Part shown: in pieces, positions 1 to 22,295 of the stretch
Layout of the letters: the number at the start of each line of letters is the position of its first letter
How positions within the stretch are numbered: position 1 is the stretch's first letter
Virus record (IMG/VR): IMGVR_UViG_3300005549_000001
Length of the DNA: 22,315 nucleotides
From: an uncultured virus (IMG/VR IMGVR_UViG_3300005549_000001)
Lineage: Duplodnaviria; Heunggongvirae; Uroviricota; Caudoviricetes
Direction: 5' to 3' (one strand)
Program-made: the position numbers and the translations under genes
Notes under the pieces: generated by a model
The model's database searches: none
What the model was told of the DNA's origin: nothing
Seen by the model: only the letters and a program-made list of their open reading frames with translations

Positions 1-241
1 GCGACGCGAGTTCGACGTCGTACTTGGGCAGCACGAAGTCGGCCTGTGTACTGCCCATTCCGTTGTGCAACATCGCGCGGAGTGCGTTCACCGCGTGGGT
101 CTGTCCTTTATCAGCCTTCTTTATGAGCTTCTTTGCTTTGCGCACCCGTTGAATCTCATCTTCAAGAGAGTTTTCGTAGCTCTCGATCAGGACGAGAGTC
201 TCTTCGAGTATTTGACGTCGGTGCAATTTGTTCCATCGCAT
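1..241 (-). CDS. Hypothetical protein, 3' end beyond the window (MRWNKLHRRQILEETLVLIESYENSLEDEIQRVRKAKK...)
   Basis: Hand translation: ATG at 241, 3 nt after the stop of 245..613, purine-rich SD-like sequence upstream, frame open to position 1. Confidence 0.65.
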   Translation of the reverse strand, partial: MRWNKLHRRQILEETLVLIESYENSLEDEIQRVRKAKKLIKKADKGQTHAVNALRAMLHNGMGSTQADFVLPKYDVELAS

Positions 242-244
242 TGT

Positions 245-613
245 TTACGTCTTCCCCCTGAGCTTGAACCCCCACACGCGAGCGCCCGCGCGGTAGCGCG
301 AGGCTTCCGCTGGTCCTAGGTCGTCGGGCGCGTCGTCGCGCTCCATGAAGCGCAAGGCGTCCGCGGCGGACATGGCCACGACGCGGAGGTACTCGTCGCG
401 CTCGAATGCCGGGCCCTCGGGCAGCGCCGCCTGCGCCTCCTCGAGCGACATGCGGAGCGCGGCGCAGAGTTCCTTGATCTCGTGGTCGCCGAGAAATGTA
501 CCGGCAGTGTTCTTACCATCGCGCAGGTACAAGTAGACGTTGCCCTCGTGATTGGCGACGACCAAGAACTCACCATTCTTTATCGGAATCTTTCGTTCTT
601 CGAATTTTGCCAT
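245..613 (-). CDS. Hypothetical protein (122 aa)
   Basis: Normal globular composition, co-oriented with neighbours. Confidence 0.75.
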   Translation of the reverse strand: MAKFEERKIPIKNGEFLVVANHEGNVYLYLRDGKNTAGTFLGDHEIKELCAALRMSLEEAQAALPEGPAFERDEYLRVVAMSAADALRFMERDDAPDDLGPAEASRYRAGARVWGFKLRGKT

Positions 614-671
614 CTAGTTCACCCGGGCCCGCCCGCGATCCTCCGGTCACGAGCGGGGCCTGGTGTCCTAG
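614..671 (-). other. Long imperfect hairpin filling the intergenic space
   Basis: Minus strand CUAG-GA-CACCAGGCCCCGCUCGUGA pairs with UCGCGGGCGGGCCCGGGUG-AA-CUAG (G-U pairs, few mismatches). GGAGG lies in the loop and the ATG at 613 follows the stem base. Confidence 0.55.
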
Positions 672-675
672 CTTG

Positions 676-1830
676 TTACGCGGCCTTCTTCTCGAGCACG
701 GCTCCCGCGATGCGCTGGAGCTCGATCTTCCGGTCGGCGTCCTCGGTCTGGTTGGCGATCCAGCTGAGCGCATTCGAGAACCGGAGCGCCGTCTTGCCCT
801 CGGGCAGCATGACGTTGTCCGGGCCCTCGAAGGCCTCCTTGGCGCGCTGCGCCTCGCCCTTGCTGAGCAGCTGCCCGACCTTCTTGAACGCCGCGTTCCA
901 GGAGGTCTCCTGAGCGTGGGCCTGCCGCACGGCGTCGAGCCGCGCCTCGATGGCCTTGGGCGCCAGGATGTTGCCGATGACGTCGCGCGTGGCGCTGATC
1001 ATCGTCCTCGTGTCGAGCTCGTAGGTCTGCTGCGAGAAGGTGAGCTCCTCGGGCAGGCGTTTTCCGAGGTGGACCTGCTTGAGCACGCTCTCGCCGATGG
1101 CCGCGTTCAGGCAGAGGAGCCTCAGCACGAACGCGCTCACGCCGTACATTCCCGCGCCGTAGTCGCTGTTCTGCCATGAGAGGCCGAACACCATGAACTC
1201 GCCCGGGACGGGCTCGTGCACGGTCGGGATGATGGCGCGCACGGAGACGCGCACGTCGCTCGCCACGCCCTCGAACGGTACGGCGCCGACCTTCTGCGCC
1301 TCGCCGAGGAAGGCGTCGAGCAGCGGCCTGCTGTCGAGCCGCCGGAACTTGTCGCTCAGGATGCCGCGGGCCTGGCCCCCGACGCTCCGCACGAGGTAGC
1401 GGCCGCCCTGGTGGCGGTAGTGCTGGTCGAGCGTGTACTCGAGCAGCCGGTGCTCCCACGAGGTGCCGTCGGCCTCCGCCTCGGCCGCGTCGAGCCGCCG
1501 CGCGTACGCGGTCGGGACGCCCGCCCGCTCGACCAGCTGCTCGAATGCGTGGTTGTGCAGCAGCCACTGCTGGTCGCCGACCCCAAACGCGAGCCGGCCG
1601 CCGGCGCGACCGAATTGCAGCCGCTCGCCGCGCACGATGTCGTCTCGCGGCACCTCGCTCAGGATGCGCTGCACGACGGCGCTGGAGCGCGCCGCTCCTC
1701 TTCGGACGGCGTCGTCGAGGTTTGCCCGCGCGAGCGCGAGCTTGCTCTCCTCCGGCAGTCCGCCGTGGCCGAGTATGTCGTGCACGACTCGGCCGTCAGT
1801 CTCTATTACGGGCTTCACTTCCAGGGGCAT
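676..1830 (-). CDS. DUF932-family phage/plasmid protein (384 aa)
   Basis: Motifs RGILSDKFRRLD and NSDYGAG...FVLRLLCLNAAI...HLG resemble DUF932 (NS..G....RLVC.NG...H). AAGGAG SD before the ATG. Confidence 0.75.
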   Translation of the reverse strand: MPLEVKPVIETDGRVVHDILGHGGLPEESKLALARANLDDAVRRGAARSSAVVQRILSEVPRDDIVRGERLQFGRAGGRLAFGVGDQQWLLHNHAFEQLVERAGVPTAYARRLDAAEAEADGTSWEHRLLEYTLDQHYRHQGGRYLVRSVGGQARGILSDKFRRLDSRPLLDAFLGEAQKVGAVPFEGVASDVRVSVRAIIPTVHEPVPGEFMVFGLSWQNSDYGAGMYGVSAFVLRLLCLNAAIGESVLKQVHLGKRLPEELTFSQQTYELDTRTMISATRDVIGNILAPKAIEARLDAVRQAHAQETSWNAAFKKVGQLLSKGEAQRAKEAFEGPDNVMLPEGKTALRFSNALSWIANQTEDADRKIELQRIAGAVLEKKAA

Positions 1831-1874
1831 GTGTCAGTCTCCTTTTTGTAGGGGTTCATGTGGTGCACTCCGGG

Positions 1875-1912
1875 GGTATAACACCGGGCTTTACCCAGTG
1901 CAACTTTTTTCT
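1875..1912 (-). promoter_or_regulatory. Sigma70-type promoter for the DUF932-like gene
   Basis: TTGCAC (1903-1898), 17 nt, then TATACC (1880-1875) preceded by TGn, with an upstream A-tract (UP-like). Confidence 0.65.
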
Positions 1913-1931
1913 CTCGACCCCCGCTAGTTTT

Positions 1932-2312
1932 TTATTGCTGCTCTTCGATCCCGTAGTGCGCGCGCTGCAGGGCGCGGGCCTTTTGCTGCAAGCGTCCGAC
2001 TTGTTCGGCGTGTGGGTGAGATAGACCGCCGAACACGTAGCGCGTGTCACGAAAGTAATTCTCGAGGTAGTGCGCGGTTGTGCTCGGTTTCTGGCCCGGG
2101 TAGTAGAACGTGACGAGCAGGATGCCGCCGTGCGGCGCCGTCACCTCGAAGGCCTGATAGGCGTACTTGCCGCCGTCCGCCTCGCGCACGGTCTCGACCG
2201 CGTTCGGGCGCTTGCGGTCCAGCAGAAACTGCACGGCGTGCGAGAGCACGGTGCTTTCTTCTTGGAGTCGAACGCATTCGGCCGCGAGTTCTTCTCTGGT
2301 TTGCTTTTTCAT
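1932..2312 (-). CDS. Hypothetical protein (126 aa)
   Basis: ATGA overlap with 2309..2587; plausible composition. Confidence 0.75.
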   Translation of the reverse strand: MKKQTREELAAECVRLQEESTVLSHAVQFLLDRKRPNAVETVREADGGKYAYQAFEVTAPHGGILLVTFYYPGQKPSTTAHYLENYFRDTRYVFGGLSHPHAEQVGRLQQKARALQRAHYGIEEQQ

Positions 2313-2587
2313 GTTGGATCTTTAGTTTCGAATTGAAGCCCGAAAATTTTGACACCTCCGGGTTGGAAGCTCAGGATCGCGATAGATTCCGCGAGCGCGT
2401 TGAACGCCCGCGCCGACTCACCCTTTTTCTTGCCGCGAAACTGGATGACGTCACCTTTTTCGGCGATGACTTGACCGAGTTCTCGGCCACGTGAGAGGCG
2501 CTCCTCCGGGTCGCGACCGCGCCATTGCTCGATCCACAATGGGACCGCGGCGCTGAGCGCAATTCGCAGTAGCTCTTCATCGGGCAT
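2309..2587 (-). CDS. Hypothetical protein (92 aa)
   Basis: Overlaps both neighbours in an operon-like manner; helical composition. Confidence 0.75.
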   Translation of the reverse strand: MPDEELLRIALSAAVPLWIEQWRGRDPEERLSRGRELGQVIAEKGDVIQFRGKKKGESARAFNALAESIAILSFQPGGVKIFGLQFETKDPT

Positions 2588-3185
2588 GGTTTGGATGCTC
2601 GACTCGTTCGAGTCCGCCGTGCTTGCGGTTGAGCGCGTTCTTGCCTTCGGTCGTGATCTGCGTTGCGCCGTTGCGCGAGCGCTTCAGATAGCCAGCTGCG
2701 GCGAGCCGGTTTAAGTCGGCTTCACTAGGCGTGTCGCGGTAGCGTGCCCATTCGTTGCGTCGACCCATCGAGTTCAATCCGCTGAACGTGTAGAGGATCC
2801 AACGGTCGCGCGGGTCGAGCTCTGTCGGCGCGGGTAAGAGCTTTGCTATGTTCGATGGCGCGAGGTAGAGCGTCGCGAATGTGCGCGGATAGCCCATGGT
2901 CCCCTTGATGACGGCCACGCCGTCGGGGATTGGGTAGTCCGCCGAGTCCAGGTCAACCTGGTTTTGTGGGTTGAACATGTTCGAACCGCCCCACGATCCG
3001 ATGAGTTCTTCGCGTTGGCCGGTCGCGAGCATGATGAGCACGCAGAAGCCGCGCTTGCCGTCACCACCGCATACTTGCGGCGACACTTTCTCGGCCGCGC
3101 GCACTTCGATGTCAGCGGCGCCATAGCTCACGGCGCGCAAGGCGGATTGAATGCTTTCGGGCAGATCTCTGACTTTTGCATACAT
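2577..3185 (-). CDS. Hypothetical phage protein with possible C-terminal winged helix (202 aa, starts MYAKV)
   Basis: Start moved to ATG 3185 after GGGAAGAAAAAACA. C-terminal LNRLAAAGYLKRSRNGATQITTEGK resembles a wHTH wing. Confidence 0.75.
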   Translation of the reverse strand: MYAKVRDLPESIQSALRAVSYGAADIEVRAAEKVSPQVCGGDGKRGFCVLIMLATGQREELIGSWGGSNMFNPQNQVDLDSADYPIPDGVAVIKGTMGYPRTFATLYLAPSNIAKLLPAPTELDPRDRWILYTFSGLNSMGRRNEWARYRDTPSEADLNRLAAAGYLKRSRNGATQITTEGKNALNRKHGGLERVEHPNHAR

Positions 3186-3200
3186 TGTTTTTTCTTCCCG

Positions 3201-3287
3201 TGGTCGCACCGCGTGGGATCGAACCACTGCGACCGCGCACCCTTGGCGGGCCCCGCTATCCTGCGGGCTTCTCGGCGGTCCGGTGCG
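3201..3287 (-). ncRNA. tRNA-like element (87 nt): acceptor stem, T-arm and 3' CCA with a non-canonical middle
   Basis: CGCACCG/CGGUGCG-A-CCA stem; T-arm GUGG-UUCGAUC-CCAC at canonical spacing; no standard D or anticodon arm. Confidence 0.6.
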
Positions 3288-3290
3288 GGA

Positions 3291-3321
3291 GCGGCGCGCG
3301 GAACGCGCCGCGTTTTTTCTT
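3291..3321 (+). terminator. Rho-independent terminator-like hairpin, antisense to the local genes
   Basis: GCGGCGCG-CGGAA-CGCGCCGC followed by GTTTTTTCTT. Confidence 0.45.
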
Positions 3322-3339
3322 CGCGTGTTTCCTCCTAGG

Positions 3340-3555
3340 TTAGAGCTCAGTTTCGAGCGCGGGCATTCCGTGGCCGTTGCTCTTCACCTCGACCACTTCT
3401 CGCCCGACGATTTTGTTGTAGAGCGCTGGAAACTCTTGGGCAAAGCGCTGCCTATCCTCGCTGGTCCAGCGATACGTGACCCAGTCGATGAAGACTTGCA
3501 CCTCGTAGGGTGCGAGATTTCGCGCGTGGTTCGGGATTACTTTGATCGCGTTCAT
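3340..3555 (-). CDS. Hypothetical protein (71 aa, starts MNAIKVIP)
   Basis: ATGA overlap with the stop of 3552..3758. Confidence 0.7.
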   Translation of the reverse strand: MNAIKVIPNHARNLAPYEVQVFIDWVTYRWTSEDRQRFAQEFPALYNKIVGREVVEVKSNGHGMPALETEL

Positions 3556-3758
3556 TCTTGCTCGTCGTCGCGATGTTTCAGCGAGTAGGGTGTGCCGTTC
3601 AGGTGCTCGCGCGCCCAGCGGATCGCGTCCGCTTCTGTCTTGAATGCACCGCGGCCGATCGGATCGAATGCGAGTGGATCGAATTCGCGCTTCGGGTGCC
3701 ACTCAGTGGCGAATTCGGCTGGCACGCTGGGCACGATCACGGTCCAGTAGCCGGCCAT
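3552..3758 (-). CDS. Hypothetical protein (68 aa, starts MAGYWTV)
   Basis: ATG 2 nt after the upstream TGA; coupled to the downstream gene. Confidence 0.7.
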   Translation of the reverse strand: MAGYWTVIVPSVPAEFATEWHPKREFDPLAFDPIGRGAFKTEADAIRWAREHLNGTPYSLKHRDDEQE

Positions 3759-13461: not shown

Positions 13462-14174
13462 CGTCGCCTCCAGTTTGCGTCGAAGAGCCTACCGGCGCGC
13501 CAGTGCGCGGGGTTGCCCTGCATCTTGAGCCCGTGCGTGCTCGGCAGCATTCTGTTTTCGGCGAGCACGGGCCTGTGAAAGAAGACGCGCTTGCCGAGCT
13601 TCCACACGGCCCGCGAGAGTGCAGCATCCTGACCGTACGTCTTCGAGCTCCGGGGGCGTTTGTTCTTTCTCGGGCAATCGCAGGTGTCGAGTGCGCAACC
13701 GAATGTCGCGGCCCACTCGCGCACCAGCTTGAGGGCCGTGGTGGCGACTTCTCGCGGTGCTGCAACGCAGAGCGAGCCGTACATCACTTCTGAGTTGCGG
13801 TAGCGCTCGAGTCCGCTTGAGGCTGTGTGCATCGTGTCGCTGAGCGCGGCTTGGGACACGTAGAGCCAGCCGGCGCCGAACAGGGGATCTCTCAGTGCTG
13901 GCCACGTGAGGAAGTTGTGGACAAGGTGTCGGTTGACGAGCACGTCGTCCTCGAGCCTCATGATGTACTGGGCGTCACACGCCGCCATCTTCTCGAGCAG
14001 CTCGGCGAAGAACTGACACTTTGGCACGCCGCGAGGGTGCTCGTGGACCTCGAAGTTCTCGCCGATGTCCGACTCCCTGACGCTCTTCAGCGTCTCCTCG
14101 ACTCCGGAGGACCTCTGCGGACAGGTCTGAACGAATACAGCGACTTGTCTCATACGGCCCTTGTCAGGCATCAT
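13458..14174 (-). CDS. GT-A fold glycosyltransferase
   Basis: VFVQTCPQR...TLKS, IMRLEDDV (DxD-like), GQD.AL and a C-terminal H; GTGA overlap. Confidence 0.7.
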   Translation of the reverse strand: MMPDKGRMRQVAVFVQTCPQRSSGVEETLKSVRESDIGENFEVHEHPRGVPKCQFFAELLEKMAACDAQYIMRLEDDVLVNRHLVHNFLTWPALRDPLFGAGWLYVSQAALSDTMHTASSGLERYRNSEVMYGSLCVAAPREVATTALKLVREWAATFGCALDTCDCPRKNKRPRSSKTYGQDAALSRAVWKLGKRVFFHRPVLAENRMLPSTHGLKMQGNPAHWRAGRLFDANWRRR

Positions 14175-14182
14175 AGCAGAGC

Positions 14183-14896
14183 GTGCTGCCTCGTCGCCGA
14201 AACCGAAAGAAGGTCTACAAGCAACCTGCTCAGGAGCAGGTTCGCAAGGTGCGGGCTAGGCCTAAGCGTCCCACCAGGGAAGTGTCGTTGAGGGTTACCC
14301 ACGTGTCCTCGCGACCCGTACCGAATGTGTCGCTGTTTTCCTGCGTGCCGTACTCCCCCGATGGAAACCTCGGCGGAGCCTACAACAGGTTCATGGAGCT
14401 CTTGCCGAGCGACGGCTGGGCGTGCTTTCTAGATCACGACGCGATCTGGACGACGAGGTACTGGTACGATCAGATAGCGCGCGCCGTCGCCTCGGCACCT
14501 CAAAACACGGGCGCGATCACGGCCGTCACCAACCGCATCGCGAACCCGAGGCAGCTCGTTTCGGGGTGCCCGAAGGACCACGACATGCTGCGCCACCGCA
14601 GGTTCGGCATGGTGCAGTTCGTCCGGCACGGCGACAAGCTCGTGGAGATCACGAATGCGGAGCCGATGAGCGGCGTCGTCATCATCTTGTCGAAGGCGGC
14701 GTGGCGCGCGTGCGGTCCACTGCCGTCTGGACTGCTCGGCGTTGACAATCACCTGCACGCTGCGTTGAGGAGGGCTGGCAGGCGCGTCTTTCTCATGCCC
14801 GGGCTCTACGTCTACCACTTTTACCGCGGCGACGGGGACAAGTCGCACCTCCGGCGCGGGCGCGCGCTCGAGGAGCCGTCACGCTGGTGGCGATGA
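14183..14896 (+). CDS. GT-A (GT2-like) glycosyltransferase with a basic N-terminal extension
   Basis: PYSPDGNLGGAYN...WACFLDHDA...GVDN...GLYVYH. Start uncertain (14183, 14303 or 14327). Confidence 0.8.
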   Translation: MLPRRRNRKKVYKQPAQEQVRKVRARPKRPTREVSLRVTHVSSRPVPNVSLFSCVPYSPDGNLGGAYNRFMELLPSDGWACFLDHDAIWTTRYWYDQIARAVASAPQNTGAITAVTNRIANPRQLVSGCPKDHDMLRHRRFGMVQFVRHGDKLVEITNAEPMSGVVIILSKAAWRACGPLPSGLLGVDNHLHAALRRAGRRVFLMPGLYVYHFYRGDGDKSHLRRGRALEEPSRWWR

Positions 14897-15510
14897 AGAT
14901 CGTCGTCAACGGCGCGCGATACCGTGACCTGCCGGTCATTGATCCACAGAGGGTAGCGATCGAGGCGGACCTCTCGCGAGCAGACGTCGCCGTGCTGCAC
15001 GAGCTCTGCGCAGGCAGGACCGTCGTAGAATTTGGCTGCGGTGGCTCGACGCTGCTGCTTGCTCGCTTCAGTCGCATCGTGCTCTCGTACGACCACGACG
15101 TGGGCTGGCTCGAGCGCGTCGCCCGCGTGGCTCGTCGTCGAGCTCAGAAGGGCGTGCGCATGTCGCGCATTGTCCTGCAGCACGTGTCCGAGGGCGCCCC
15201 GCCGCCGAAGCTGCCCCGCGTCGACGTGCTCTTCGTCGACGGCGAGCGGAATGCCCGGCACCTCTGGGTAGAGCGCGCTCTCAGGGCCCGCGTTGCCCGC
15301 GTCGTCGTAATCCACGACTCGCGGCGGCCCTCGCCGCTCGCGGACTGCTCGTCGCTCATCACGTGGCCACTCACCAGGAGCATCGACAGGGTACTCTACC
15401 ACTACAAAAACTCGAACCACGTCGTCGTGTGCCTCCGCGACGAGTCCGTTCGGTACGTGGACTGGAATAAGGCTGAACCGCGGCGCCGATTGCCGCACTT
15501 GCACGTGTAG
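14893..15510 (+). CDS. Class I SAM-dependent methyltransferase
   Basis: VVEFGCGGST (motif I), VDVLFVDG, VIHD; ATGA overlap. Confidence 0.85.
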   Translation: MKIVVNGARYRDLPVIDPQRVAIEADLSRADVAVLHELCAGRTVVEFGCGGSTLLLARFSRIVLSYDHDVGWLERVARVARRRAQKGVRMSRIVLQHVSEGAPPPKLPRVDVLFVDGERNARHLWVERALRARVARVVVIHDSRRPSPLADCSSLITWPLTRSIDRVLYHYKNSNHVVVCLRDESVRYVDWNKAEPRRRLPHLHV

Positions 15511-15525
15511 GGTTAGCATAGGGAA

Positions 15526-16191
15526 ATGAAGCGCACGCGGGAGCAGTGGGTGTCGCTGTGCAGGTGCGTGAGCTCTGGATTCATCCCGAGCACGGGAAGG
15601 GCGACGCTCTACGACAGCGGCGTCGAGTACGTGAAAACGTTTCTCGAGCCCTCGGGTGCGCTCGGCGGCAACGATCGCGTCGTCGACGTCGGCTGCGGCA
15701 ATGGCCGACTCGCCATGGGACTGACCGAGCGGCGCGGCGTGCAGTACTTGGGACTTGACGTCGTCCGCGAGTCGGTAGACTTCTGCGCTGCCGCGTTCGA
15801 GGGCTTGCCTGGCTTCAAGTTCGCGCACCTTGACGTTCGCAACTCCCGGTATAACCCCGCCGGCAAGCAGGACGGCGCGCGGATGACGCTGCCGCTGCCC
15901 GACGGTTGGGCGACGCTCGTCGTCGCCTCGAGCCTCTTCACGCACATTGCAAACCCCCTCGTGACGAAGCGCTACCTCTCCGAGATGCGGCGCGTGCTCG
16001 AGCCCGGCGGCAAGATGCTGACGACGTGGTTTGCCAACCCGCCTAACAGGCTCTCGGGCAACGAGGCGCGCGTCGTGCGTCGGCAATCTGATATTGAGGC
16101 GCTGCTAGAACCTGACGAGGTCGTCTGGCAACACGGCGGCGAAACGACTGAGCACCACGACCAGTGGATGCTTCTCACAAGGGTGGCGTGA
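15526..16191 (+). CDS. Class I SAM-dependent methyltransferase
   Basis: VVDVGCGNGR, YLGLDV, SSLFTH, RVLEPGG. Confidence 0.9.
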   Translation: MKRTREQWVSLCRCVSSGFIPSTGRATLYDSGVEYVKTFLEPSGALGGNDRVVDVGCGNGRLAMGLTERRGVQYLGLDVVRESVDFCAAAFEGLPGFKFAHLDVRNSRYNPAGKQDGARMTLPLPDGWATLVVASSLFTHIANPLVTKRYLSEMRRVLEPGGKMLTTWFANPPNRLSGNEARVVRRQSDIEALLEPDEVVWQHGGETTEHHDQWMLLTRVA

Positions 16192-16769
16192 GCCTCGTCT
16201 CGGTCATCATTCCGACGATCGGGCGCCCGTCCCTCAAGAACACCGTCGAGTCCGTGCGGGCTCAGACACACCAGCCCGTTGAGGTGATCGAGGTAGTCGA
16301 CGCGCGCAGGCGCGGCGCAGCTTGGGCGCGCAACGAAGGAGCTCGCAGAGCTCACGGCGAGTTCCTCTTTTTCTGCGACGACGACGTCCGGCTGGAGTCC
16401 CGGGCACTCGAGATGCTCGTCGCGGCTCTCAGGCATTTGCCGAGCGCCTCGTACTCGTACGGCTGGTACGTGATGGGCCCCCACGTCATCAGCCGCGTCA
16501 AGTTTGATGCGGTCAGGCTCCGCAAGAAGAACTTCATTTCGTCGATGGCTCTTGTTCGCGCCTCGCACTTCATCGGCTTCGACGAGAAGCTGCCGCGCTG
16601 GCAGGACTGGGATCTTTGGCTCCGAATGCTGCGTTATGGTCGCGTTGGCGCATTTGTGGACGCCAAGATCTTTGAGACGACATTTGATCCGAAGGGGATC
16701 AGCGGCAACGCGCGCGCTCTAGAAGTGGCCCGGGGCGTCTTGCTCAAGCGGCACGGGATTCAGCGATAG
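16188..16769 (+). CDS. GT2 glycosyltransferase
   Basis: VSVIIPT, GAAWARNEG, EFLFFCDDD, FDEKL...QDWDLWLR; GTGA overlap. Confidence 0.9.
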   Translation: MSLVSVIIPTIGRPSLKNTVESVRAQTHQPVEVIEVVDARRRGAAWARNEGARRAHGEFLFFCDDDVRLESRALEMLVAALRHLPSASYSYGWYVMGPHVISRVKFDAVRLRKKNFISSMALVRASHFIGFDEKLPRWQDWDLWLRMLRYGRVGAFVDAKIFETTFDPKGISGNARALEVARGVLLKRHGIQR

Positions 16770-17907
16770 AGCGCGTCCAATTGGCGAGGCTACGACCGAC
16801 GTGCGCCGCTCGGTGCCGCTCCCAGCCCGGCCAGGTCCGCGTGCCGCACGCGTGCTGGCCGCGGGCCGTCTGCATCGCCTCGACGAGGTCGTCGAGGTCG
16901 TAGTCGATGTAGGTCGCCCCCTCACCCCACGGGTAGCTAAGATCTGCTGCGATCAGGCCAGTGGCCGATATACAAATGTCTACTTCCGGATCGAGGAAGT
17001 CCTCGGGGCCGCCGCTCGCCGTGCAGATGAGGCGCCGCCCCGCGAGCTTGGCTGCCCAGGCACCGAGCTCGAGGCCCTCGCCGCGGCTCGCGCTGACGTA
17101 GACGTCTCCGTCGGCGTGCACCCCGAGCATCTCCTCGCGGGAGAGTCGGCCCTCGACGATGCATACATCTTCCCACACGTTCGAACCGGTCCAACCATTT
17201 CGATAGACGTCGGGCTGGCCGAGCTCGTAGTCGACGATGCGCCAGGGGCTCGGGTACTCAGCGATGTGCTGGATGGGGCTCGTCTTCAGCGTGAGCTTGG
17301 ACTCACCCGGGGCGAAGGCTCGCAGGAAGGCGCGGATGATGTTGTCCGGGGTCTTGCGCGGCTCAAATCTGCCGATGTTGTAGAAGTGCTTCGGTTCGCG
17401 AACAGGCTTGTCGAGCTCGAGGTGCGGGTCGTCGTCGAAGAATGGGTAAGGGATCAGCGCGACGTTGTGAACGCCGGCCTCGCGGAGCACGAGCTCGTTC
17501 ATGCGGCACTGCACCCACACGCCCGAGAGCTGGTTCATCTTCTCGACGAGCGCCGGCTCGATGTAGCGCCTCTCGAACACGCAGTAGAAGGCCTGCGGTT
17601 CCTTGTTCGTCATCATTGCGTCGAGCACGCCGAGCTTGTCCGAGGACAGCAGCGCGCAGGAGAAGACGTGCAGGTCGACGCCGCGGAGCTGCTGCTCCGT
17701 CGTCAGCATGGACAGGGGGTGCTCCCCCGTGAGTGCAGGAAGGAGCTCGTTGAATAGCTCCTCGTCGAGACCGACGGCGTTTGGTCGCTGCCAGTCGCGG
17801 AGCAGCACGTCGAGACCGCCGAGCTGCATGGCCCGGGCGTAGGCCCTCGACGCGATGGACCAGCCGTCGGCTGGGTGCATCCACGGCGTATTGAAGAGGA
17901 CCTTCAA
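16744..17907 (-). CDS. GT4-like (GT-B) glycosyltransferase
   Basis: NIGRFEPRK, DVYVSASRGEG, GGPEDF; TTG start abuts the upstream stop. Confidence 0.85.
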   Translation of the reverse strand: MKVLFNTPWMHPADGWSIASRAYARAMQLGGLDVLLRDWQRPNAVGLDEELFNELLPALTGEHPLSMLTTEQQLRGVDLHVFSCALLSSDKLGVLDAMMTNKEPQAFYCVFERRYIEPALVEKMNQLSGVWVQCRMNELVLREAGVHNVALIPYPFFDDDPHLELDKPVREPKHFYNIGRFEPRKTPDNIIRAFLRAFAPGESKLTLKTSPIQHIAEYPSPWRIVDYELGQPDVYRNGWTGSNVWEDVCIVEGRLSREEMLGVHADGDVYVSASRGEGLELGAWAAKLAGRRLICTASGGPEDFLDPEVDICISATGLIAADLSYPWGEGATYIDYDLDDLVEAMQTARGQHACGTRTWPGWERHRAAHVGRSLANWTRSIAESRAA

Positions 17908-18348
17908 CTAGTTTCGCTTCTCTACGGCGAGAGAGGCGAGCACCGAGTCACCCGCGTCACTCTGCGCCACCAGCTGGATGACATCTCCCGCGTCGAGCTC
18001 GACCAGGACAGTGATCGCTCCGGATCGGACGCCAGGATTCTCCGCGGAGTCGAGGGCTATCTGAGAGCCGTTGCGGAATATGGCAATGATGTCCAGACCC
18101 GCGCCGCTCCAGAAGTGCGTCGCGTAGATCGCGTAGACGCCGTCCTGCAGGACGTTGATCGCGTCACTCGCGAGGTCAGGCTCGAGCGCGGGGCCGATGT
18201 CGAAGTCGATGGTGTCGAAGTCGACGAATCCGCCGCCTCCGGGTGGTGTGAAGGGGGTGGCGTTCGAGATCTTCGTCGCGGAATATAAGGCTGCGCCGGG
18301 AGCGCCTCCTCCGGGAGAGCAGATCGTGGGACAGATGGGGGCTACCAT
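17908..18348 (-). CDS. C1q/TNF-like beta-sandwich protein with N-terminal CPTIC
   Basis: VDFDT.DFD, DGVYAI, IFRNG and VELDAGDVIQL follow the C1q strand pattern. Confidence 0.75.
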   Translation of the reverse strand: MVAPICPTICSPGGGAPGAALYSATKISNATPFTPPGGGGFVDFDTIDFDIGPALEPDLASDAINVLQDGVYAIYATHFWSGAGLDIIAIFRNGSQIALDSAENPGVRSGAITVLVELDAGDVIQLVAQSDAGDSVLASLAVEKRN

Positions 18349-18352
18349 GACA

Positions 18353-18838
18353 TCACCCTACGCACGGCCGGAAGATGCTGAGCGCCGCGCTGTTCAGGAG
18401 CACGCCCTCGAGCGCGCCGTTTTGCACTACGAAGAGTTGGACGAGATTTCCTGCGCCAAGAGCGAGAGATGTAGCCACGCTCTGTGTTGAAGGCGCCGGG
18501 CCCAGTGCGTGGACGAAGGCTGCCCTTTGGACGCCGTTCACGTAGATGAACGTCGTTGCGAAGGCTCCGGGATCGCCCGTCGCACCGAAGTTCATCGTGA
18601 AGTTGACGGAGTAAACGCCGAGCGCGCCAGCCACCACGCCGTCGTTCGGCAGGTCGGCGAAGCTCGGAGGAGTCTCGAAGTCGACCGTGTCCATGTCCAC
18701 GTCACTGAGCCCACCGTTTAGGAGAGCCTGTGGCGTCGACGAGCTCACGCCCGCGCCAGTCTCTAAGCAGGGTGTGCCTACAGGTCCACAAGGCTGAGCC
18801 ACGGTGCTGCAGATGGTATTCGTGATGGGTGTGGGCAT
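18353..18838 (-). CDS. C1q/TNF-like protein with N-terminal TNTIC
   Basis: VDMDTVDFE, GVYSVNF, IYVNG, LALGAGNLVQL. Confidence 0.75.
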   Translation of the reverse strand: MPTPITNTICSTVAQPCGPVGTPCLETGAGVSSSTPQALLNGGLSDVDMDTVDFETPPSFADLPNDGVVAGALGVYSVNFTMNFGATGDPGAFATTFIYVNGVQRAAFVHALGPAPSTQSVATSLALGAGNLVQLFVVQNGALEGVLLNSAALSIFRPCVG

Positions 18839-18850
18839 GTTGAACCTTCT

Positions 18851-19363
18851 TTAGATGCGGCTGGCTAGGATAATCAGCGCCGAGATCAGGGTGGCGTACT
18901 CGCCCGCTATGAAGCCGCCAATAGCGACCTGTAGGGTATCTCCCGGTTCGAGCGAGAGCATTTTGTCGGCAGATCCTGAAAATGACAGAAAGAGGTTTGC
19001 CGAATCGATCGTACCCTGCTGCACGGTGTCCAGAACGATTTCTCCGTTCTTCCGCAGCATCGAGAAGAAGGGTGTTTTTGCTGGAGAAGACGTCACGGTG
19101 ATAGAGATCGCGTAGCTGACACGCGCCCTGAGCGCCGCGGTGCCCACATATCGAAGAACTCCGGGAGCTGGACTGTCGAAAAAGTTACTCTCGGGACTGA
19201 GGCTGCCCTCGGGCACCTCGTGCGACTCGGAGGCGGCTTGAGTGAAGTTGAACGAGGGAGGCGTCGTCGAGGCAGAGAGGGAGAGCTCACCGACGACGAA
19301 GGGCACGCCGCTCCTGGCCCCTGGCGACGTCCCCGTAGAAGTGTCTGCGATGGGAATGGTCAT
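18851..19363 (-). CDS. TNF/BclA-like beta-sandwich protein (170 aa, starts MTIPIADT)
   Basis: AGGAG SD; LRKNG and LSLEPGDTLQV; paralog of 19366..19884. Confidence 0.7.
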   Translation of the reverse strand: MTIPIADTSTGTSPGARSGVPFVVGELSLSASTTPPSFNFTQAASESHEVPEGSLSPESNFFDSPAPGVLRYVGTAALRARVSYAISITVTSSPAKTPFFSMLRKNGEIVLDTVQQGTIDSANLFLSFSGSADKMLSLEPGDTLQVAIGGFIAGEYATLISALIILASRI

Positions 19364-19365
19364 CG

Positions 19366-19884
19366 TCAGCTCCTCGTGGCGACGATGCTGAGCCCCGAGA
19401 CGAGCATGCTGTAGGTCGACCCGGGTGTGAATGCCGCCAGGCCTATCTGGAGCGTGTCGCCAGGCTGCAGGGTGAGGAGTGTGTCGCTCGAGCCCGTGAA
19501 TGCGATGTCCCCCTCGGCGCCGATGTCGAGCGACATGAGCTGCAGCGTCGAAAGCACGTTGTCGCTGTTGAGGATGAGATTCGATAGGAAGAGCGACGCT
19601 GTGACGCCGCCAGTCGCGGAGAGCCACACGGCCGAGAGCGCGTAGCTCACGCGGAAGCGCAGCGGCGCTGTTCCCACGTACTGCAGCGTGCCAGGTGAGG
19701 GGTTCGTGAAAAGGTTGCTGTTTTCTGCGTCGAGCGTGCCAACCGTTACTGGGTGCTGCTCGCTAGCAACCTGCGCGAAAGCGAATGCTGCGCCCGTCAT
19801 GTCCCCGAACGAGACCTCGCCGGCGACGAAGAGGGGTCCGCCACCAGCGCCGGGTGAACCTCCGCAGATCGTTTCGCACTTCAT
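19366..19884 (-). CDS. TNF/BclA-like beta-sandwich protein with N-terminal CETIC
   Basis: GTLQYVG, RVSYALS, LTLQPGDTLQI. Confidence 0.7.
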   Translation of the reverse strand: MKCETICGGSPGAGGGPLFVAGEVSFGDMTGAAFAFAQVASEQHPVTVGTLDAENSNLFTNPSPGTLQYVGTAPLRFRVSYALSAVWLSATGGVTASLFLSNLILNSDNVLSTLQLMSLDIGAEGDIAFTGSSDTLLTLQPGDTLQIGLAAFTPGSTYSMLVSGLSIVATRS

Positions 19885-19888
19885 CTTT

Positions 19889-20209
19889 TTACGCTCCCGG
19901 CATGAGGGTGTACGCGATAACGGCGGCTACTCCAAGTACGAGTGCCGCGGCTCCCTTGTTCGGAGACCTGCTGCCGAGCCAGTATGCGGCCGTGAAGATC
20001 GCGAGGTCGGTCGCGACGTTGAGCGGCGACTCGGGCCTCTTGCTTCCGAAGAGCACCGAGCCGCGCGGCCACTCGTGCGCGTACTCGATGACCTCGTAGG
20101 CCACGGCGCCGCCGAACGCGGTGAGGGGAGAGACGCCGAGCAACCCCGTGGACAGGCCGGTCAGGCCGTGCACGGTGCTCCAGGCATCGAGGGCGGACTC
20201 GTTGATCAA
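19889..20209 (-). CDS. Small polytopic membrane protein, DUF2585-like putative metal-dependent hydrolase (106 aa)
   Basis: TTGA overlap start; DAWSTVH...YEVIE...ESPLNVATD within hydrophobic helices. Confidence 0.6.
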   Translation of the reverse strand: MINESALDAWSTVHGLTGLSTGLLGVSPLTAFGGAVAYEVIEYAHEWPRGSVLFGSKRPESPLNVATDLAIFTAAYWLGSRSPNKGAAALVLGVAAVIAYTLMPGA

Positions 20210-20679
20210 CCGCCACCTGAGATGATGTCGACGATCTGATCGCGGATGCAGTAGCTCATCTCGAGGTCCCATCGGTACGTACCAGCGGCTCCGTCGACCT
20301 GAAACTGGAGTGTGTTGCCGCTGACGTTGAAAGCGGTAGCCAGACCTGCTGAGAGAGATTGCAGCGTTGTGTTTTGCTGCAGCACGGTGAGTCCTGGAAG
20401 GATGTTGTCCGCGTCCCAGCGCCGGGCCATGCCGCGGAAGTACACGAAGCCTCCCTGCACGCCGTCGACGTTGTCGATCGTCTTCACGACGTAGCCAGTT
20501 ACCGTGACCTCGACGAGCTGTTCGTCGGCTACCGCCAGGTCGAACTCCGGCACAATCATCAGTGTGTCGCCCTCGGTGAAGACCGTGGCGCAGCGAACCG
20601 GGCAGCAGCCCCCTCCTTCGGCAGCTACGGCTTGTTGTGCTGGGCTGCCGCAGATTGTGCTGCACTGGGGGGCTATCAT
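20206..20679 (-). CDS. Beta-rich putative virion protein with N-terminal CSTIC (157 aa)
   Basis: Start MIAPQ at 20679; beta-strand pattern ending TLQFQVDGAAGTYRW. Confidence 0.7.
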   Translation of the reverse strand: MIAPQCSTICGSPAQQAVAAEGGGCCPVRCATVFTEGDTLMIVPEFDLAVADEQLVEVTVTGYVVKTIDNVDGVQGGFVYFRGMARRWDADNILPGLTVLQQNTTLQSLSAGLATAFNVSGNTLQFQVDGAAGTYRWDLEMSYCIRDQIVDIISGGG

Positions 20680-20686
20680 GGTTTTG

Positions 20687-20696
20687 ATGGTACCAT
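20687..20696. promoter_or_regulatory. Palindrome ATGGTACCAT, candidate bidirectional extended -10 element
   Basis: Reads TGgTACCAT on each strand, exactly 7 nt before ATG 20704 (+) and ATG 20679 (-). Confidence 0.6.
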
Positions 20697-20703
20697 GACC
20701 CGC

Positions 20704-20961
20704 ATGAGGCACACCAGCAGCCGGCGCGCAAGGAGACCGGACCCCCTCGCCCGGCTCCGAAAGATCGCCGATTTAGCTGAGTCCGACCCCTCTCGTTTTC
20801 GTGAGGAGTGTCGGCAAGTGGCGTCGAAGCTCGGCGTGGGCGTCGAACAGCTCTACCGGCTCGAAAGCGATCCGGAATTCAGGAAGGCCCTGAAGGAGAT
20901 GGCCGTTAATGCGGCACTTTCAGGTGCGGTCAAGCTCGCCCGGCGCGCGCTCGGTATCTAG
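20704..20961 (+). CDS. Small helical, possibly HTH protein (85 aa, starts MRHTSSRR)
   Basis: Fills the gap between two minus-strand genes; QVASKLGVGVEQLYR is HTH-like. Confidence 0.6.
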   Translation: MRHTSSRRARRPDPLARLRKIADLAESDPSRFREECRQVASKLGVGVEQLYRLESDPEFRKALKEMAVNAALSGAVKLARRALGI

Positions 20962-20962
20962 C

Positions 20963-21787
20963 TTAGACGAGCCCGGGGCCGTAGCGGGCCGTCACGTAGG
21001 CGTCGAGCTCGGCGAGTTCTTGAACGGTCGGCTGCCTGTCGAAGATTGCGAAATCACAGACCTCAATGTTGGCGAAGGAGGACAAGTTGGCCGCGGCGCC
21101 GAGAACGAAGTTTGCAGCAGGATCGGTGTTACCGGCGTTCGCAGTCGTTTGCGTCGCGCCACCGACCTTGGTGTAGTCGCTGACGCTGCCCGAGAAGTAA
21201 ATCTCGAGCCGCTTGTAAACGTTGAGCGTGAGCCCGCTGTTCGGGTTTACGCCAAAAGCGCCAGCTCCGGCGTCGTTTCTCATTGCAATGACGGGCGTCC
21301 CGCCGGGCATGTGCTGCAGCACTGCAAGCGAGCTATTGTTGCCGACACCGGCTCCCCACAATCTGTCGCCGCCGGTCCAGGTCACCTGGCGCAGCACGGC
21401 CCAGTAGAAGGTGCGAGTCGTGGCAGGCGCGGGCAGGTCGAGCAGGGCGTTGGCGACGTCGTCGTTGACCCCGTCGAAGAGGACGGATGGCGTGGCGTTA
21501 GGTCCGCCGGTCGCGTTGAACGTCGGCTGGTTTGCCCCGACGGCTTGGATCAGATCGAAGCCGTTCCCGCTTCCGTCGGTCCACGAGCTGACGGTGCCCC
21601 CGTTGAGTACCAGGAGGTCGCCGCGCCACCAGGCGACCGTACTGGCGCCCATGATGCTCGCGGGTGTTATCGGAGCGGGCGGAGGCACCGGGGGAATCGG
21701 CGTCACCACAATTCTGTTGCAGATCGTCTCGCAGGACTGCGCGCAGGACGTGCGACAGGGTCCGTCGCAGTTAATTTGACAAATCAT
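20963..21787 (-). CDS. LamG/concanavalin-A-like protein with a Cys-rich N-terminus ending CETIC (274 aa)
   Basis: AWWRGD...VSSWTDGSGNG...Q.....QP...FDGVND...YVTARYG, a typical phage LamG-like pattern; GAGGA SD; Pro-rich linker. Confidence 0.8.
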   Translation of the reverse strand: MICQINCDGPCRTSCAQSCETICNRIVVTPIPPVPPPAPITPASIMGASTVAWWRGDLLVLNGGTVSSWTDGSGNGFDLIQAVGANQPTFNATGGPNATPSVLFDGVNDDVANALLDLPAPATTRTFYWAVLRQVTWTGGDRLWGAGVGNNSSLAVLQHMPGGTPVIAMRNDAGAGAFGVNPNSGLTLNVYKRLEIYFSGSVSDYTKVGGATQTTANAGNTDPAANFVLGAAANLSSFANIEVCDFAIFDRQPTVQELAELDAYVTARYGPGLV

Positions 21788-21968: not shown

Positions 21969-22295
21969 TTATCTGCGCTGGAGTAGCGCTGCAACGGTGC
22001 CCTTGAGCTCGCCGATCTTGTCGATGAGCCGCTCGCGCCGGTCGCTGTCGAGGTTCGTGTAAGCTGTAAATTCTTCGACCGTGAGATAGTCCTTCAGGGC
22101 GTGTTCCACGATCTCGCGCACGCGCTCGTCGGAGAGGGTCGGCAGCCTCTTGTCCTCGAGCTTCTTCATTTCCTCCCGGAGAAGCTTTAAGTCCCTCTTG
22201 TTTTCACGACTTACGCGCGCCTTCGTCGTGAAGTACGTGCTCACGGCCGAGCCCAGGGCGACTCCGACAAGGGTCGCTATTTGGGCGGCGTCCAT
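21969..22295 (-). CDS. N-terminal TM plus coiled-coil protein (108 aa; phage membrane or lysis-associated type)
   Basis: One N-terminal hydrophobic helix then charged helices; TACACT 6 nt before the ATG. Confidence 0.7.
   Translation of the reverse strand: MDAAQIATLVGVALGSAVSTYFTTKARVSRENKRDLKLLREEMKKLEDKRLPTLSDERVREIVEHALKDYLTVEEFTAYTNLDSDRRERLIDKIGELKGTVAALLQRR

Follow-up and report, generated by a model that had tools for sequence, protein, structure and literature searches.

A short N-terminal cysteine tag on unrelated beta-sandwich heads of an uncultivated soil virus: a candidate connector

Introduction

Why should neighbouring proteins of one virus begin alike and fold differently? The question is raised by a 22,315-nucleotide stretch of DNA (the window) from an uncultured virus, IMG/VR record IMGVR_UViG_3300005549_000001, in which six genes, g1 to g6, lie on the minus strand between positions 17908 and 21787. 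A first-pass annotation, made from the sequence alone, had noted that five of the six proteins start with a short peptide of the form CxTIC, placed ahead of folded domains (heads) of different kinds, and had proposed that this tag docks interchangeable heads at one site on the virion.

We examined the tag, its conservation, the heads behind it and the systems that it resembles. The favoured reading, to which we assign a probability of about 0.5, is that of a connector: by way of the tag, diverse heads would dock on one shared acceptor, where a disulfide or a metal would lock the tag in place.

Results

An N-terminal tag in a run of late genes

All six reading frames and the N-termini quoted for them were confirmed, with the motif at the start of five. 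Gene g1 (17908..18348; 146 aa) begins with MVAPICPTIC (18348-18319), followed by a Gly/Pro linker and a predicted C1q/TNF/BclA-like head. Gene g2 (18353..18838; 161 aa) begins with MPTPITNTIC (18838-18809) and continues with a Cys-bearing linker (C17, C24), a BclA_C-like head and a C-terminal C159. In g4 (19366..19884; 172 aa) the tag is MKCETIC (19884-19864), the linker GGSPGAGGG and the head of a second beta-sandwich family, while g5 (20206..20679; 157 aa) joins MIAPQCSTIC (20679-20650) to a linker with C25, C26 and C30 and to an orphan head. The N-terminus of g6 (20963..21787; 274 aa), MICQINCDGPCRTSCAQSCETIC, is a Cys ladder (21787-21713) ending in CETIC; polyproline and a predicted ConA/LamG-like lectin head follow. 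The sixth gene, g3 (18851..19363; 170 aa), was credited at first with an SPG linker alone. Its sequence is 46% identical to that of its paralogue g4, with the Cys replaced, and its degenerate tag, MTIPIADTST (19363-19334), retains P4, I5 and T8.

The consensus for g1, g2, g3 and g5 is M-x-x-P-[IQ]-[CTA]-x-T-[IS]-[CT], and the tag takes the form M-x-x-P-I-[C/T]-x-T-I-C or a shortened or extended version of it. Cys residues recur with a period of four (CX3C), at C6 and C10 in g1 and g5, at C3 and C7 in g4, and at C3, C7, C11, C15, C19 and C23 in g6, where they precede the polyproline VTPIPPVPPPAP. A CC doublet is absent from the first 12 residues of g1-g6. The tag pairs are the only Cys in g1 and g4.

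The starts of these genes are sound, since the frames of g1-g6 are all backed by periodicity of third-position G+C (GC3), Shine-Dalgarno-like sites stand ahead of g1, g2, g3 and g6, and in-frame stops lie 3-4 codons upstream of the ATGs of g1 and g2. The stops mean that the last two cannot start further upstream. Independently called homologues start at the same residue as the cluster genes, and we found no true start downstream of the motif. The genes are separated by 2-12 nt or overlap, except for 283 nt ahead of g5. The cluster of six exists as described, with an addition: between g5 and g4 lies an unlisted, untagged gene for a small membrane protein of about 105 aa (19889..20209, minus strand), which has a TTG start after AGGTGG and follows the GC3 phase.

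The motif is real, and its extent proved larger than had been noted. The IMG/VR contig L001/G001, 99.5% identical, reaches 9.5 kb past the right end of the window, and a second, G002 (43.6 kb), reaches further upstream. The counts of motifs and open reading frames (ORFs) are based on a 68-kb composite of virus sequence. Six more Cys-tagged genes lie beyond the right end, so that g1-g6 make up the downstream half of a series of 12 or more late genes. Upstream of g6, on the same strand and in order, come p108 (21969..22295, minus strand), which is untagged and has an N-terminal transmembrane segment, a coiled coil and no family match in Pfam or PHROG; p457 (MSCRTPIF); p198 (MECTPPIIPPF; L001 7539-8135); p204 (MNCADCDPCGS); p376 (MRCLLTCETTCDIVCNRV, with C3, C7, C11 and C15); p141 (MPCNVN); an Amidase_2 endolysin; and, further up, p585 (MPTPTCSTSCGSG). 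The only Cys in p457 is C3, and a lone Cys has no partner within its own chain.

Cys occurs within the first 10 residues in 11/12 cluster genes and in ~5/~76 other ORFs of the composite (Fisher p = 1.5e-9, from a crude ORF caller with manual correction of three starts). The pattern C-x-T-x-C occurs 13 times in the six frames, and seven of these are cluster-gene N-termini, all on one strand. This enrichment excludes chance.

Conservation of the tag in homologues

The tag was kept in all 14 full-length homologues of g1/g2. M1, P4, T8 and C10 were invariant across the 14-row alignment and I9 was at least 90% conserved, although the g1 and g2 clades are only 27-30% identical overall. Columns 1-10 had a mean majority-residue share of 0.81, compared with 0.58 elsewhere. 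Orthologues at 55-75% identity keep MVAPICPTIC almost unchanged, which bears out the first-pass view that conservation acts on the protein, and g2-type homologues keep P-[IVC]-T-x-T-I-C in 7/7. Both homologues found for g4 (P0002, 82% identity; P0003, 54%) keep MKC[ED]T[IV]CGGSPG.

For the LamG-like head of g6, 39 homologues were found; 36 of these begin with M, and 16/36 have a Cys within the first 12 residues. Exchange of heads behind one tag, in line with the earlier suggestion, is seen in P0170 and P0174, which have a six-Cys ladder followed by polyproline: 26 of 27 tag residues are identical between them, against 56% identity overall. Other LamG heads start with MSCCGGLKP (P0172), MSHCGCSCGSIRK (P0179) or MKCCDCCGGIKP. 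Several untagged LamG heads (P0178, P0202, P0203; L014 9956-10714; L015 9878-10699; L020 7734-8666) share the N-terminus RRPGxRFNRGR, which appears to be an alternative anchor of this head; its carriers are tailed-phage contigs and one metagenome-assembled genome (MAG) of Deltaproteobacteria.

An exhaustive profile search with the family of p198, p204 and p457 gave 1256 relatives at E<=1e-3. Among the best 150 of these, 143 begin with M; of the 143, 29 have a Cys in the first 12 residues and ~21 carry a clear M-x-C(C) tag. The dialect CGSIRK/CCGS is found in other lineages on LamG heads (P0179, P0172) and on the unrelated p198-type heads, as in MSCRCCGSIRK (P0024) and MSHCCGSIRS (P0035). Many distant p198 relatives (P0044-P0168) are ~400 aa long with three tandem copies of the domain, and may be single-chain pseudo-trimers; Pfam gave a name to none of those scanned. 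Cys residues located in the first 12 positions made up 22/42 in the g1/g2 set, 44/109 in the LamG set and 28/45 in the p198 set. As judged from these alignments, Cys tags on small beta-sandwich heads recur in a set of uncultivated viruses, a single dialect serves unrelated heads within a lineage, and the tag is better conserved than the heads.

Searches further afield were less productive. In tblastn against GenBank phages, g1 and g5 had no match and p198 and g6 had weak partial matches; scans of viral contigs with g1 and g4 gave nothing, nor did a search of genome contigs with the p198 family. The LamG profile (A6) matched 39 loci in genome contigs at 22-53% identity, mostly generic lectin-domain proteins of Bacteroidota. 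The best was in a Polyangiaceae MAG (31%), and none of the eight loci examined had a Cys tag; no host could be assigned from this search. Of the 40 listed variant places (of 117) in the population, none fell in the opening 12 codons of g1-g5 or in codons 1-29 of g6, where ~2.8 would be expected, a difference too weak to use.

These data bear on whether the similarity arose at the DNA level, the shared 5′ ends being recombination sites for head shuffling, or a coincidence of chance and codon bias. The heads are clearly shuffled, and ATCTGC is common to five of the genes. However, the Thr codons in the tag differ, as the first-pass annotation had observed (ACG in g1, g4 and g6; ACC in g2; ACA in g5), the tag persists where the remaining sequence has diverged to the extent seen between the g1 and g2 clades, and different dialects retain their Cys character. 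With the enrichment statistics also standing against coincidence, the probability of an origin of this kind is next to negligible.

Folds of the heads

Proteins g1 and g2 are paralogues (31% identity, E 5e-11). The AlphaFold2 (AF2) model of g1 had a mean predicted local distance difference test (pLDDT) score of 87.8, with values above 90 in the head and below 50 for residues 1-20; the tag thus does not pack on its own head. A Foldseek search of the PDB with this model gave 403 matches at E<=1e-3, the best being BAFF, C1q and C1QL2 (template-modelling scores of 0.73-0.79), F-BclA, BxpB/ExsFA and BclA (1WCK), and the knob of the phi812 central spike was among the matches. The profile of the g1/g2 family (A5) also matched BclA chains, with E from 7.6e-4 to 2e-3. 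Pfam BclA_C (PF18573) detected g2 at E 3.1e-4 and 21.1 bits, below the cut-off of 38, and did not detect g1; five homologues of the pair carry a precomputed PF18573 label. The g1/g2 head is therefore predicted to be a ten-strand jelly roll of the C1q/TNF superfamily.

The AF2 model of g6 (pLDDT 88.4) was most similar in Foldseek to the tailspike of cyanopodophage Pan3 (E 1.5e-7), and then to lectin-like domains of GH54, trans-sialidase and other ConA-like jelly rolls. These matches predict a ConA/LamG-like lectin fold; Pfam Laminin_G gave no hit. The C1q/TNF-like and LamG-like calls made at first pass thus hold in the models. Protein g6 also matched phrog_10356, 'virion structural protein' (E 4.5e-14), and p457 joins a p198-like domain to a g6-like lectin head.

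The g3/g4 head is a second family, whose nearest ESM Atlas clusters are viral (Uroviricota), with one BclA_C-bearing cluster and also a bacterial collagen family among its structural neighbours. That the heads differ, as first proposed, was upheld by profile comparison: hhalign gave 25% probability at most, for g3/g4 (A1) against g1/g2 (A5), and A1 against A2 aligned over the tag alone, as did g1 and g4. An orphan, g5 had no hit in Pfam or PHROG and no match in GenBank phages. By sequence comparison, then, the heads of g1/g2, g3/g4, g5 and g6 are unrelated. The match to phrog_10356, the Pan3 tailspike, the phi812 knob and the adjacency of LamG relatives to tail and internal-virion genes in five tailed-phage contigs suggest, by analogy, that the heads are of the fibre or receptor-binding type. 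None of g1-g6 has a collagen G-X-Y stalk, the longest run being 0-3 triplets.

The C1q/TNF-like heads are probably trimeric, as are all the solved relatives matched by g1. This raises the possibility that the three N-termini of one trimer cross-link to each other through interchain disulfides or a shared metal, setting the register, stabilizing the trimer or bundling trimers, and that attachment uses another surface. Precedents are the N-terminal Cys regions of C1q, adiponectin and the collectins, and the cystine knot of collagen III. Such a knot would agree with the trimeric state of every solved relative, with the even number of thiols per chain given by the CX3C pairs of g1, g4 and g5, and with the modelling of the g6 ladder as one helix with its Cys on one face. 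The Cys-rich domains (CRDs) of minicollagens also begin as intramolecular disulfides, in the accessible text of PMC4863159. However, the non-Cys residues P4, I5, T8 and I9 are as conserved as the Cys, which argues for recognition of a shaped peptide. The same tag stands on heads that are not of the C1q type, such as the lectin-fold g6, and g3 retains P-I..T although its Cys are gone; nor does a knot need to be placed at residues 3-10 of every protein. Self-linkage of this kind is possible but rather unlikely. A peptide that holds the sole thiols, stays free of its own head and surpasses that head in conservation most plausibly acts between molecules.

Comparison with known attachment systems

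The first-pass annotation had compared the tag with the adenovirus fibre tail and with the N-terminal domain of BclA, which directs it to the exosporium. The adenovirus fibre tail and the N-terminal domain of PRD1 P5 are both cases of an N-terminal peptide that holds a trimeric fibre on the vertex or penton. We found no sequence or fold evidence for this relationship in the virus, in which a penton or double-jelly-roll protein was not identified. The BclA analogy is closer, and the connectors of Bacillus endospore appendages (ENA) are closer still.

In the accessible text of PMC11362473, ENA subunits (Ena1/Ena3) are tethered through a 14-residue N-terminal connector (Ntc) with a Cys8-Cys21 bond, and the N-terminal CC motif of L-BclA, the C1q-headed, collagen-stalked protein of the tip fibrillum, is proposed to dock likewise. 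The portions available of a second study (bioRxiv 10.1101/2025.02.11.637640) describe a short N-terminal hook in F-ENA, M-P-I-I-Q-P-F, which is mimicked by its tip protein, and name the C1q-headed AGE80398.1, with five Cys in its N-terminus, as a candidate S-ENA tip or ruffle protein. In these accounts the connector docks in an acceptor, where it is disulfide-locked, and each fibre type has a cognate tip protein (PMC11362473; bioRxiv 10.1101/2025.02.11.637640). The N-terminus of p198, MECTPPIIPPF, fits the hook pattern of F-ENA (two hydrophobic residues, x, P, F), which may be coincidence.

The virus proteins share with the ENA connectors a Cys peptide of at most 15 residues at the extreme N-terminus, a flexible Gly/Pro-type stalk and a C1q/TNF-like head, probably trimeric; a short Cys peptide ahead of a jelly-roll/C1q head is what was found here, and F-BclA and BxpB/ExsFA stand among the best structural matches of g1. 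They differ in being viral rather than of the spore, in their CX3C or ladder tags in place of CC (relatives do start with MSCC or MGCC), in having no collagen GXY stalk, and in the use of one tag family for at least seven head families. The tags themselves have no sequence similarity, and a DUF3992/DUF4183 acceptor was not found.

The BclA exosporium leader binds the cleft of the TNF-like trimer ExsFA/BxpB (PDB 9H3D; bioRxiv 10.1101/2025.02.11.637640, accessible portions). It resembles the virus tag as an N-terminal peptide that targets a glycosylated, C1q-headed filament to a surface lattice, and glycosyl- and methyltransferase genes adjoin the structural genes in the virus too. Its motif is different and contains no Cys, the system belongs to the spore, g2 falls below the Pfam BclA_C threshold, and the collagen region is absent from the virus proteins.

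In Klebsiella phages, as described in the accessible text of PMC6872550 and PMC13352976, a short conserved N-terminal peptide docks an exchangeable secondary receptor-binding protein (RBP) on a primary one, giving modular host-range heads. That text does not describe the docking peptides as Cys-based; their docking site is a T4gp10-like branching domain, and such systems comprise two to a few RBPs, in contrast to twelve small heads here. No tail-fibre, anchor or branching domain was hit in the scanned ORFs with PHROG or Pfam, a negative that includes no search aimed at the T4gp10-like domain itself. In our literature search, no phage fibre or receptor-binding protein was described as having a Cys-rich N-terminal tag.

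The ladder has a counterpart in the CRDs of Hydra nematocyst minicollagens, where CX3CX3CX3CX3CC stands beside polyproline and takes part in disulfide cross-linking that builds the network of the nematocyst wall (PMC4863159, accessible text). Since these domains cross-link, a CX3C ladder can act as a disulfide cross-linker. In each, CX3C repeats adjoin polyproline at one end of a fibre, trimeric in minicollagen and probably so here, with CX3C occurring five times before the polyproline of g6. Minicollagen is, however, an animal protein with no evidence of homology, its CRDs are at both ends, and g6 has no terminal CC, so that the resemblance is one of pattern.

A membrane, a second tag and modification at the N-terminus

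C-terminal transmembrane anchors occur in at least 10 proteins of the virus, a sign that the particle may contain or carry a membrane. The Cys of the tag could then be S-acylated or otherwise lipidated and hold the heads on that membrane. An upstream gene of the SGNH/GDSL acyl-hydrolase type would be in keeping with this, as would the relatives that begin with MSCCG, MGCCGA or MKCCDCCGGIKP; MSCCG-type starts resemble the N-terminal palmitoylation motifs of eukaryotic proteins. On the other side, no S-acyltransferase was recognized in the virus, and to our knowledge S-acylation of cytoplasmic proteins is not an established process in bacteria or phages. The bacterial lipoprotein pathway is inapplicable, as no signal peptide or lipobox precedes the Cys, and the conserved Pro, Ile and Thr are left unexplained. 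Lipidation is improbable. Classification as bacterial lipoproteins was rejected for the same positional reason: the lipobox consensus is L-[AS]-[GA]-C, and here the Cys are at residues 3-10 with no hydrophobic region ahead of them. Precursors of ribosomally synthesized and post-translationally modified peptides (RiPPs) were rejected as well, the Cys-rich part being at the extreme N-terminus of folded proteins of 146-585 aa and no maturase genes being seen.

A second N-terminal tag, M-x(2-5)-[WH]-L-G-[QSA] (MSAIQWLGQA, MTQIQWLGSA, MNAIQWLGQA, MHVYSHLGQA), heads at least 13 ORFs, located in G002/L011 (G002 18.3-33.7 kb) and in the window at ~11380-10994 (-) and ~10993-10790 (-). Many of these have a C-terminal transmembrane anchor; an M23 peptidase, a CAP-domain protein and an SLT-like lysozyme are among the tagged ORFs. 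The motif occurs three more times inside a 628-aa protein, in the manner of module or processing boundaries. Just ahead of the structural block (L011 1-1521; G002 16441-18321), an intein (Hint and LAGLIDADG) splits a protein whose flanks resemble, by eye, a transglutaminase-type Cys protease whose putative catalytic Cys would fall where the intein is spliced out. The protein is a candidate for an enzyme of maturation.

A further reading is that the Cys tag is a transient address or propeptide, which directs the proteins to an assembly site or serves a viral protease or chaperone as a recognition signal, and which the mature particle would lack. The second tag, repeated in the 628-aa protein like a processing site, and the putative protease at the head of the structural block (family assigned by eye) lend this some support. 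Yet no cleavage motif follows the Cys tag, the linker begins directly after it, and removal of 7-10 residues containing the sole Cys would leave their conservation unexplained. We regard a transient role as very improbable.

Flanking genes and allelic variants

Genes for sugar modification flank the cluster. Directly downstream of g1 is a glycosyltransferase (GT)-like gene of 387 aa (16744..17907, minus strand), which matched phrog_2170 glycosyltransferase (E 1.3e-6) and, weakly, Pfam Glyco_trans_1_4. Beyond it, on the plus strand and assigned with Pfam/PHROG, lie a GT2-like gene (14183-14896), a methyltransferase-like gene (14887-15510), a methyltransferase (15526-16191) and a GT2 gene (16164-16769). 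The other end of the cluster is flanked by a matching methyltransferase-GT-TPR (tetratricopeptide repeat) gene (L001 2830-4677). Their position on both sides suggests that heads or linkers are glycosylated. In L003, a JGI contig of 84 kb that is otherwise 96-99% identical, a different 2.2-kb segment (13695-15932) replaces the methyltransferase pair at window 14843-16190, and looks like a swapped sugar-modification cassette beside the fibre cluster.

Variants were also seen within the cluster. A 233-bp deletion in g5 (20354-20586), present in L001, L003 and contigs of runs X2 and X5, joins its first 31 residues (tag and linker) in frame with the downstream membrane-protein ORF to give 185 aa. 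The undeleted allele coexists in runs X2, X5 and X7, and no repeat was seen at the junction. In L002, a variant contig of 10.9 kb, positions 1-3656 encode a 503-aa transposase, helix-turn-helix regulators and a Gly/Ser-rich lipoprotein in place of g6 and the genes further upstream. The contig represents either a rearranged copy or a chimera made in assembly.

The virus

The element is a virus by several signs: its contigs are IMG/VR uncultivated virus genomes (UViGs), and it encodes DNA polymerase A, exonucleases, ThyX, a Dam-like methyltransferase, an integrase and an endolysin (Pfam/PHROG). CheckV completeness of 20%, 52% and 49% for UViGs of 16.8, 43.6 and 41.3 kb gives a genome of ~84 kb. 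The G+C content of the window is 62-72%, and the window as a whole had no megablast match among GenBank phages. Virus DNA is present in many rhizosphere and soil metagenomes, including 11 runs with at least half of the sampled words (the source run possibly among them); none of the runs listed with virus DNA was an RNA run. The source is an uncultivated bacterial virus of soil and rhizosphere. A relative adds 13.8 kb further upstream, with a primase-helicase and an exonuclease.

None of the ORFs longer than 150 aa in the composite has a Walker-A motif. The candidate capsid protein p431 found nothing usable in a PDB sequence search, and p384 and p499 had no match among PDB sequences; profile scans of viral contigs gave nothing with p384 and p431 itself only. 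The virus also encodes a 573-aa protein (L011 4320-6041; G002 21120-22841) with an extremely Arg-rich N-terminal third (RRRRRR runs), transmembrane segments and a LysM-like end, which could be a DNA-condensing membrane protein. Many tail-anchored membrane proteins occur in G002, G003 and the window, and the particle type could be something new.

Discussion

The genes with Cys tags have a common layout: a very short N-terminal peptide, built on a four-residue repeat (x-T-I-C) that can extend into a CX3C ladder of one to six Cys; a Gly/Pro-rich or polyproline linker; and one of at least seven unrelated beta-sandwich heads, including predicted C1q/TNF/BclA-like and ConA/LamG-like lectin folds. 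As a connector, the peptide would be unstructured alone and would protrude from the base of a head that is probably trimeric. A common acceptor, located on the particle itself or on an adaptor fibre, would receive the peptide, and a covalent disulfide, or a bound metal, would lock it after the particle has left the reducing cytoplasm. Because docking would use the constant connector, the heads behind it could be swapped. We infer the virion location, the docking, the shared acceptor, trimer formation and the thiol chemistry. Among the upstream ORFs of the presumed structural block, p431 (3.7% Cys), p238 (3.8%) and WLG207 (4.8%) are Cys-rich, and could be partners of the tag.

Several results weigh against this connector. 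No acceptor was identified. A DUF3992/DUF4183 acceptor of the ENA type gave no Pfam hit among 34 + 14 + 31 hand-picked ORFs, a scan in which a miss is possible. Capsid, portal, terminase and tail genes had no PHROG or Pfam match in the composite and the 13.8 kb of the relative, so that a location on the virion rests on analogy; coverage here was ~82 of ~84 kb, of which ~19 kb upstream came from the relative at 65-81% nucleotide identity. Disulfides could form only after release, given the reducing cytoplasm of bacteria. Of the 36 LamG-head homologues, 20 have other N-termini with no Cys tag, and the helix modelled in the g6 ladder (residues 12-24) is of low confidence (pLDDT 55-66). The tags fall into sub-types (PIC.TIC, MxC and ladder) of variable length with 0-6 Cys, which argues against a single site. 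As g3 has no Cys, and the tags of g2, p198 and p457 have one each, a uniform thiol lock cannot fit every member. Given the range of Cys number and the sub-types, several sites or acceptors are as likely as the 'one virion site' first proposed, which was the least supported part of that idea.

A wider reading, clearly unlikely as a whole, is that this is a new type of large (~84 kb) membrane-bearing bacterial virus with no detectable HK97-type capsid, portal, terminase or tail genes, in which more than 25 particle proteins would be sorted by two N-terminal address tags. The Cys-ladder connector would plug a dozen glycosylated lectin- or C1q-like heads covalently on the shell, as a viral 'hairy nap', while M-x(2-5)-[WH]-L-G-[QSA] would mark C-terminally anchored membrane proteins and cell-wall hydrolases, and dialects of the Cys tag would be widespread in uncultivated soil viruses. 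The virus is in any case unusual, recognizable morphogenesis genes not having been found in the sequence covered.

The principle of a connector with exchangeable heads is known. The novelty lies in the tag found here and its CX3C ladder version, in the presence of such tags on a dozen heads of a single virus, and in that virus. Were the tag a connector, 7-25 residues would suffice to mount unrelated binding heads on one particle: a plug-in system of natural origin, more compact than every phage anchor domain so far described and possibly covalent. This would explain how a virus lineage carries and swaps a dozen different heads, and would link the attachment of viral fibres mechanistically to the disulfide-tethered appendages of Bacillus spores. 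The tag is also a simple sequence handle for finding fibre and decoration genes in viral dark matter, where Pfam and PHROGs draw a blank.

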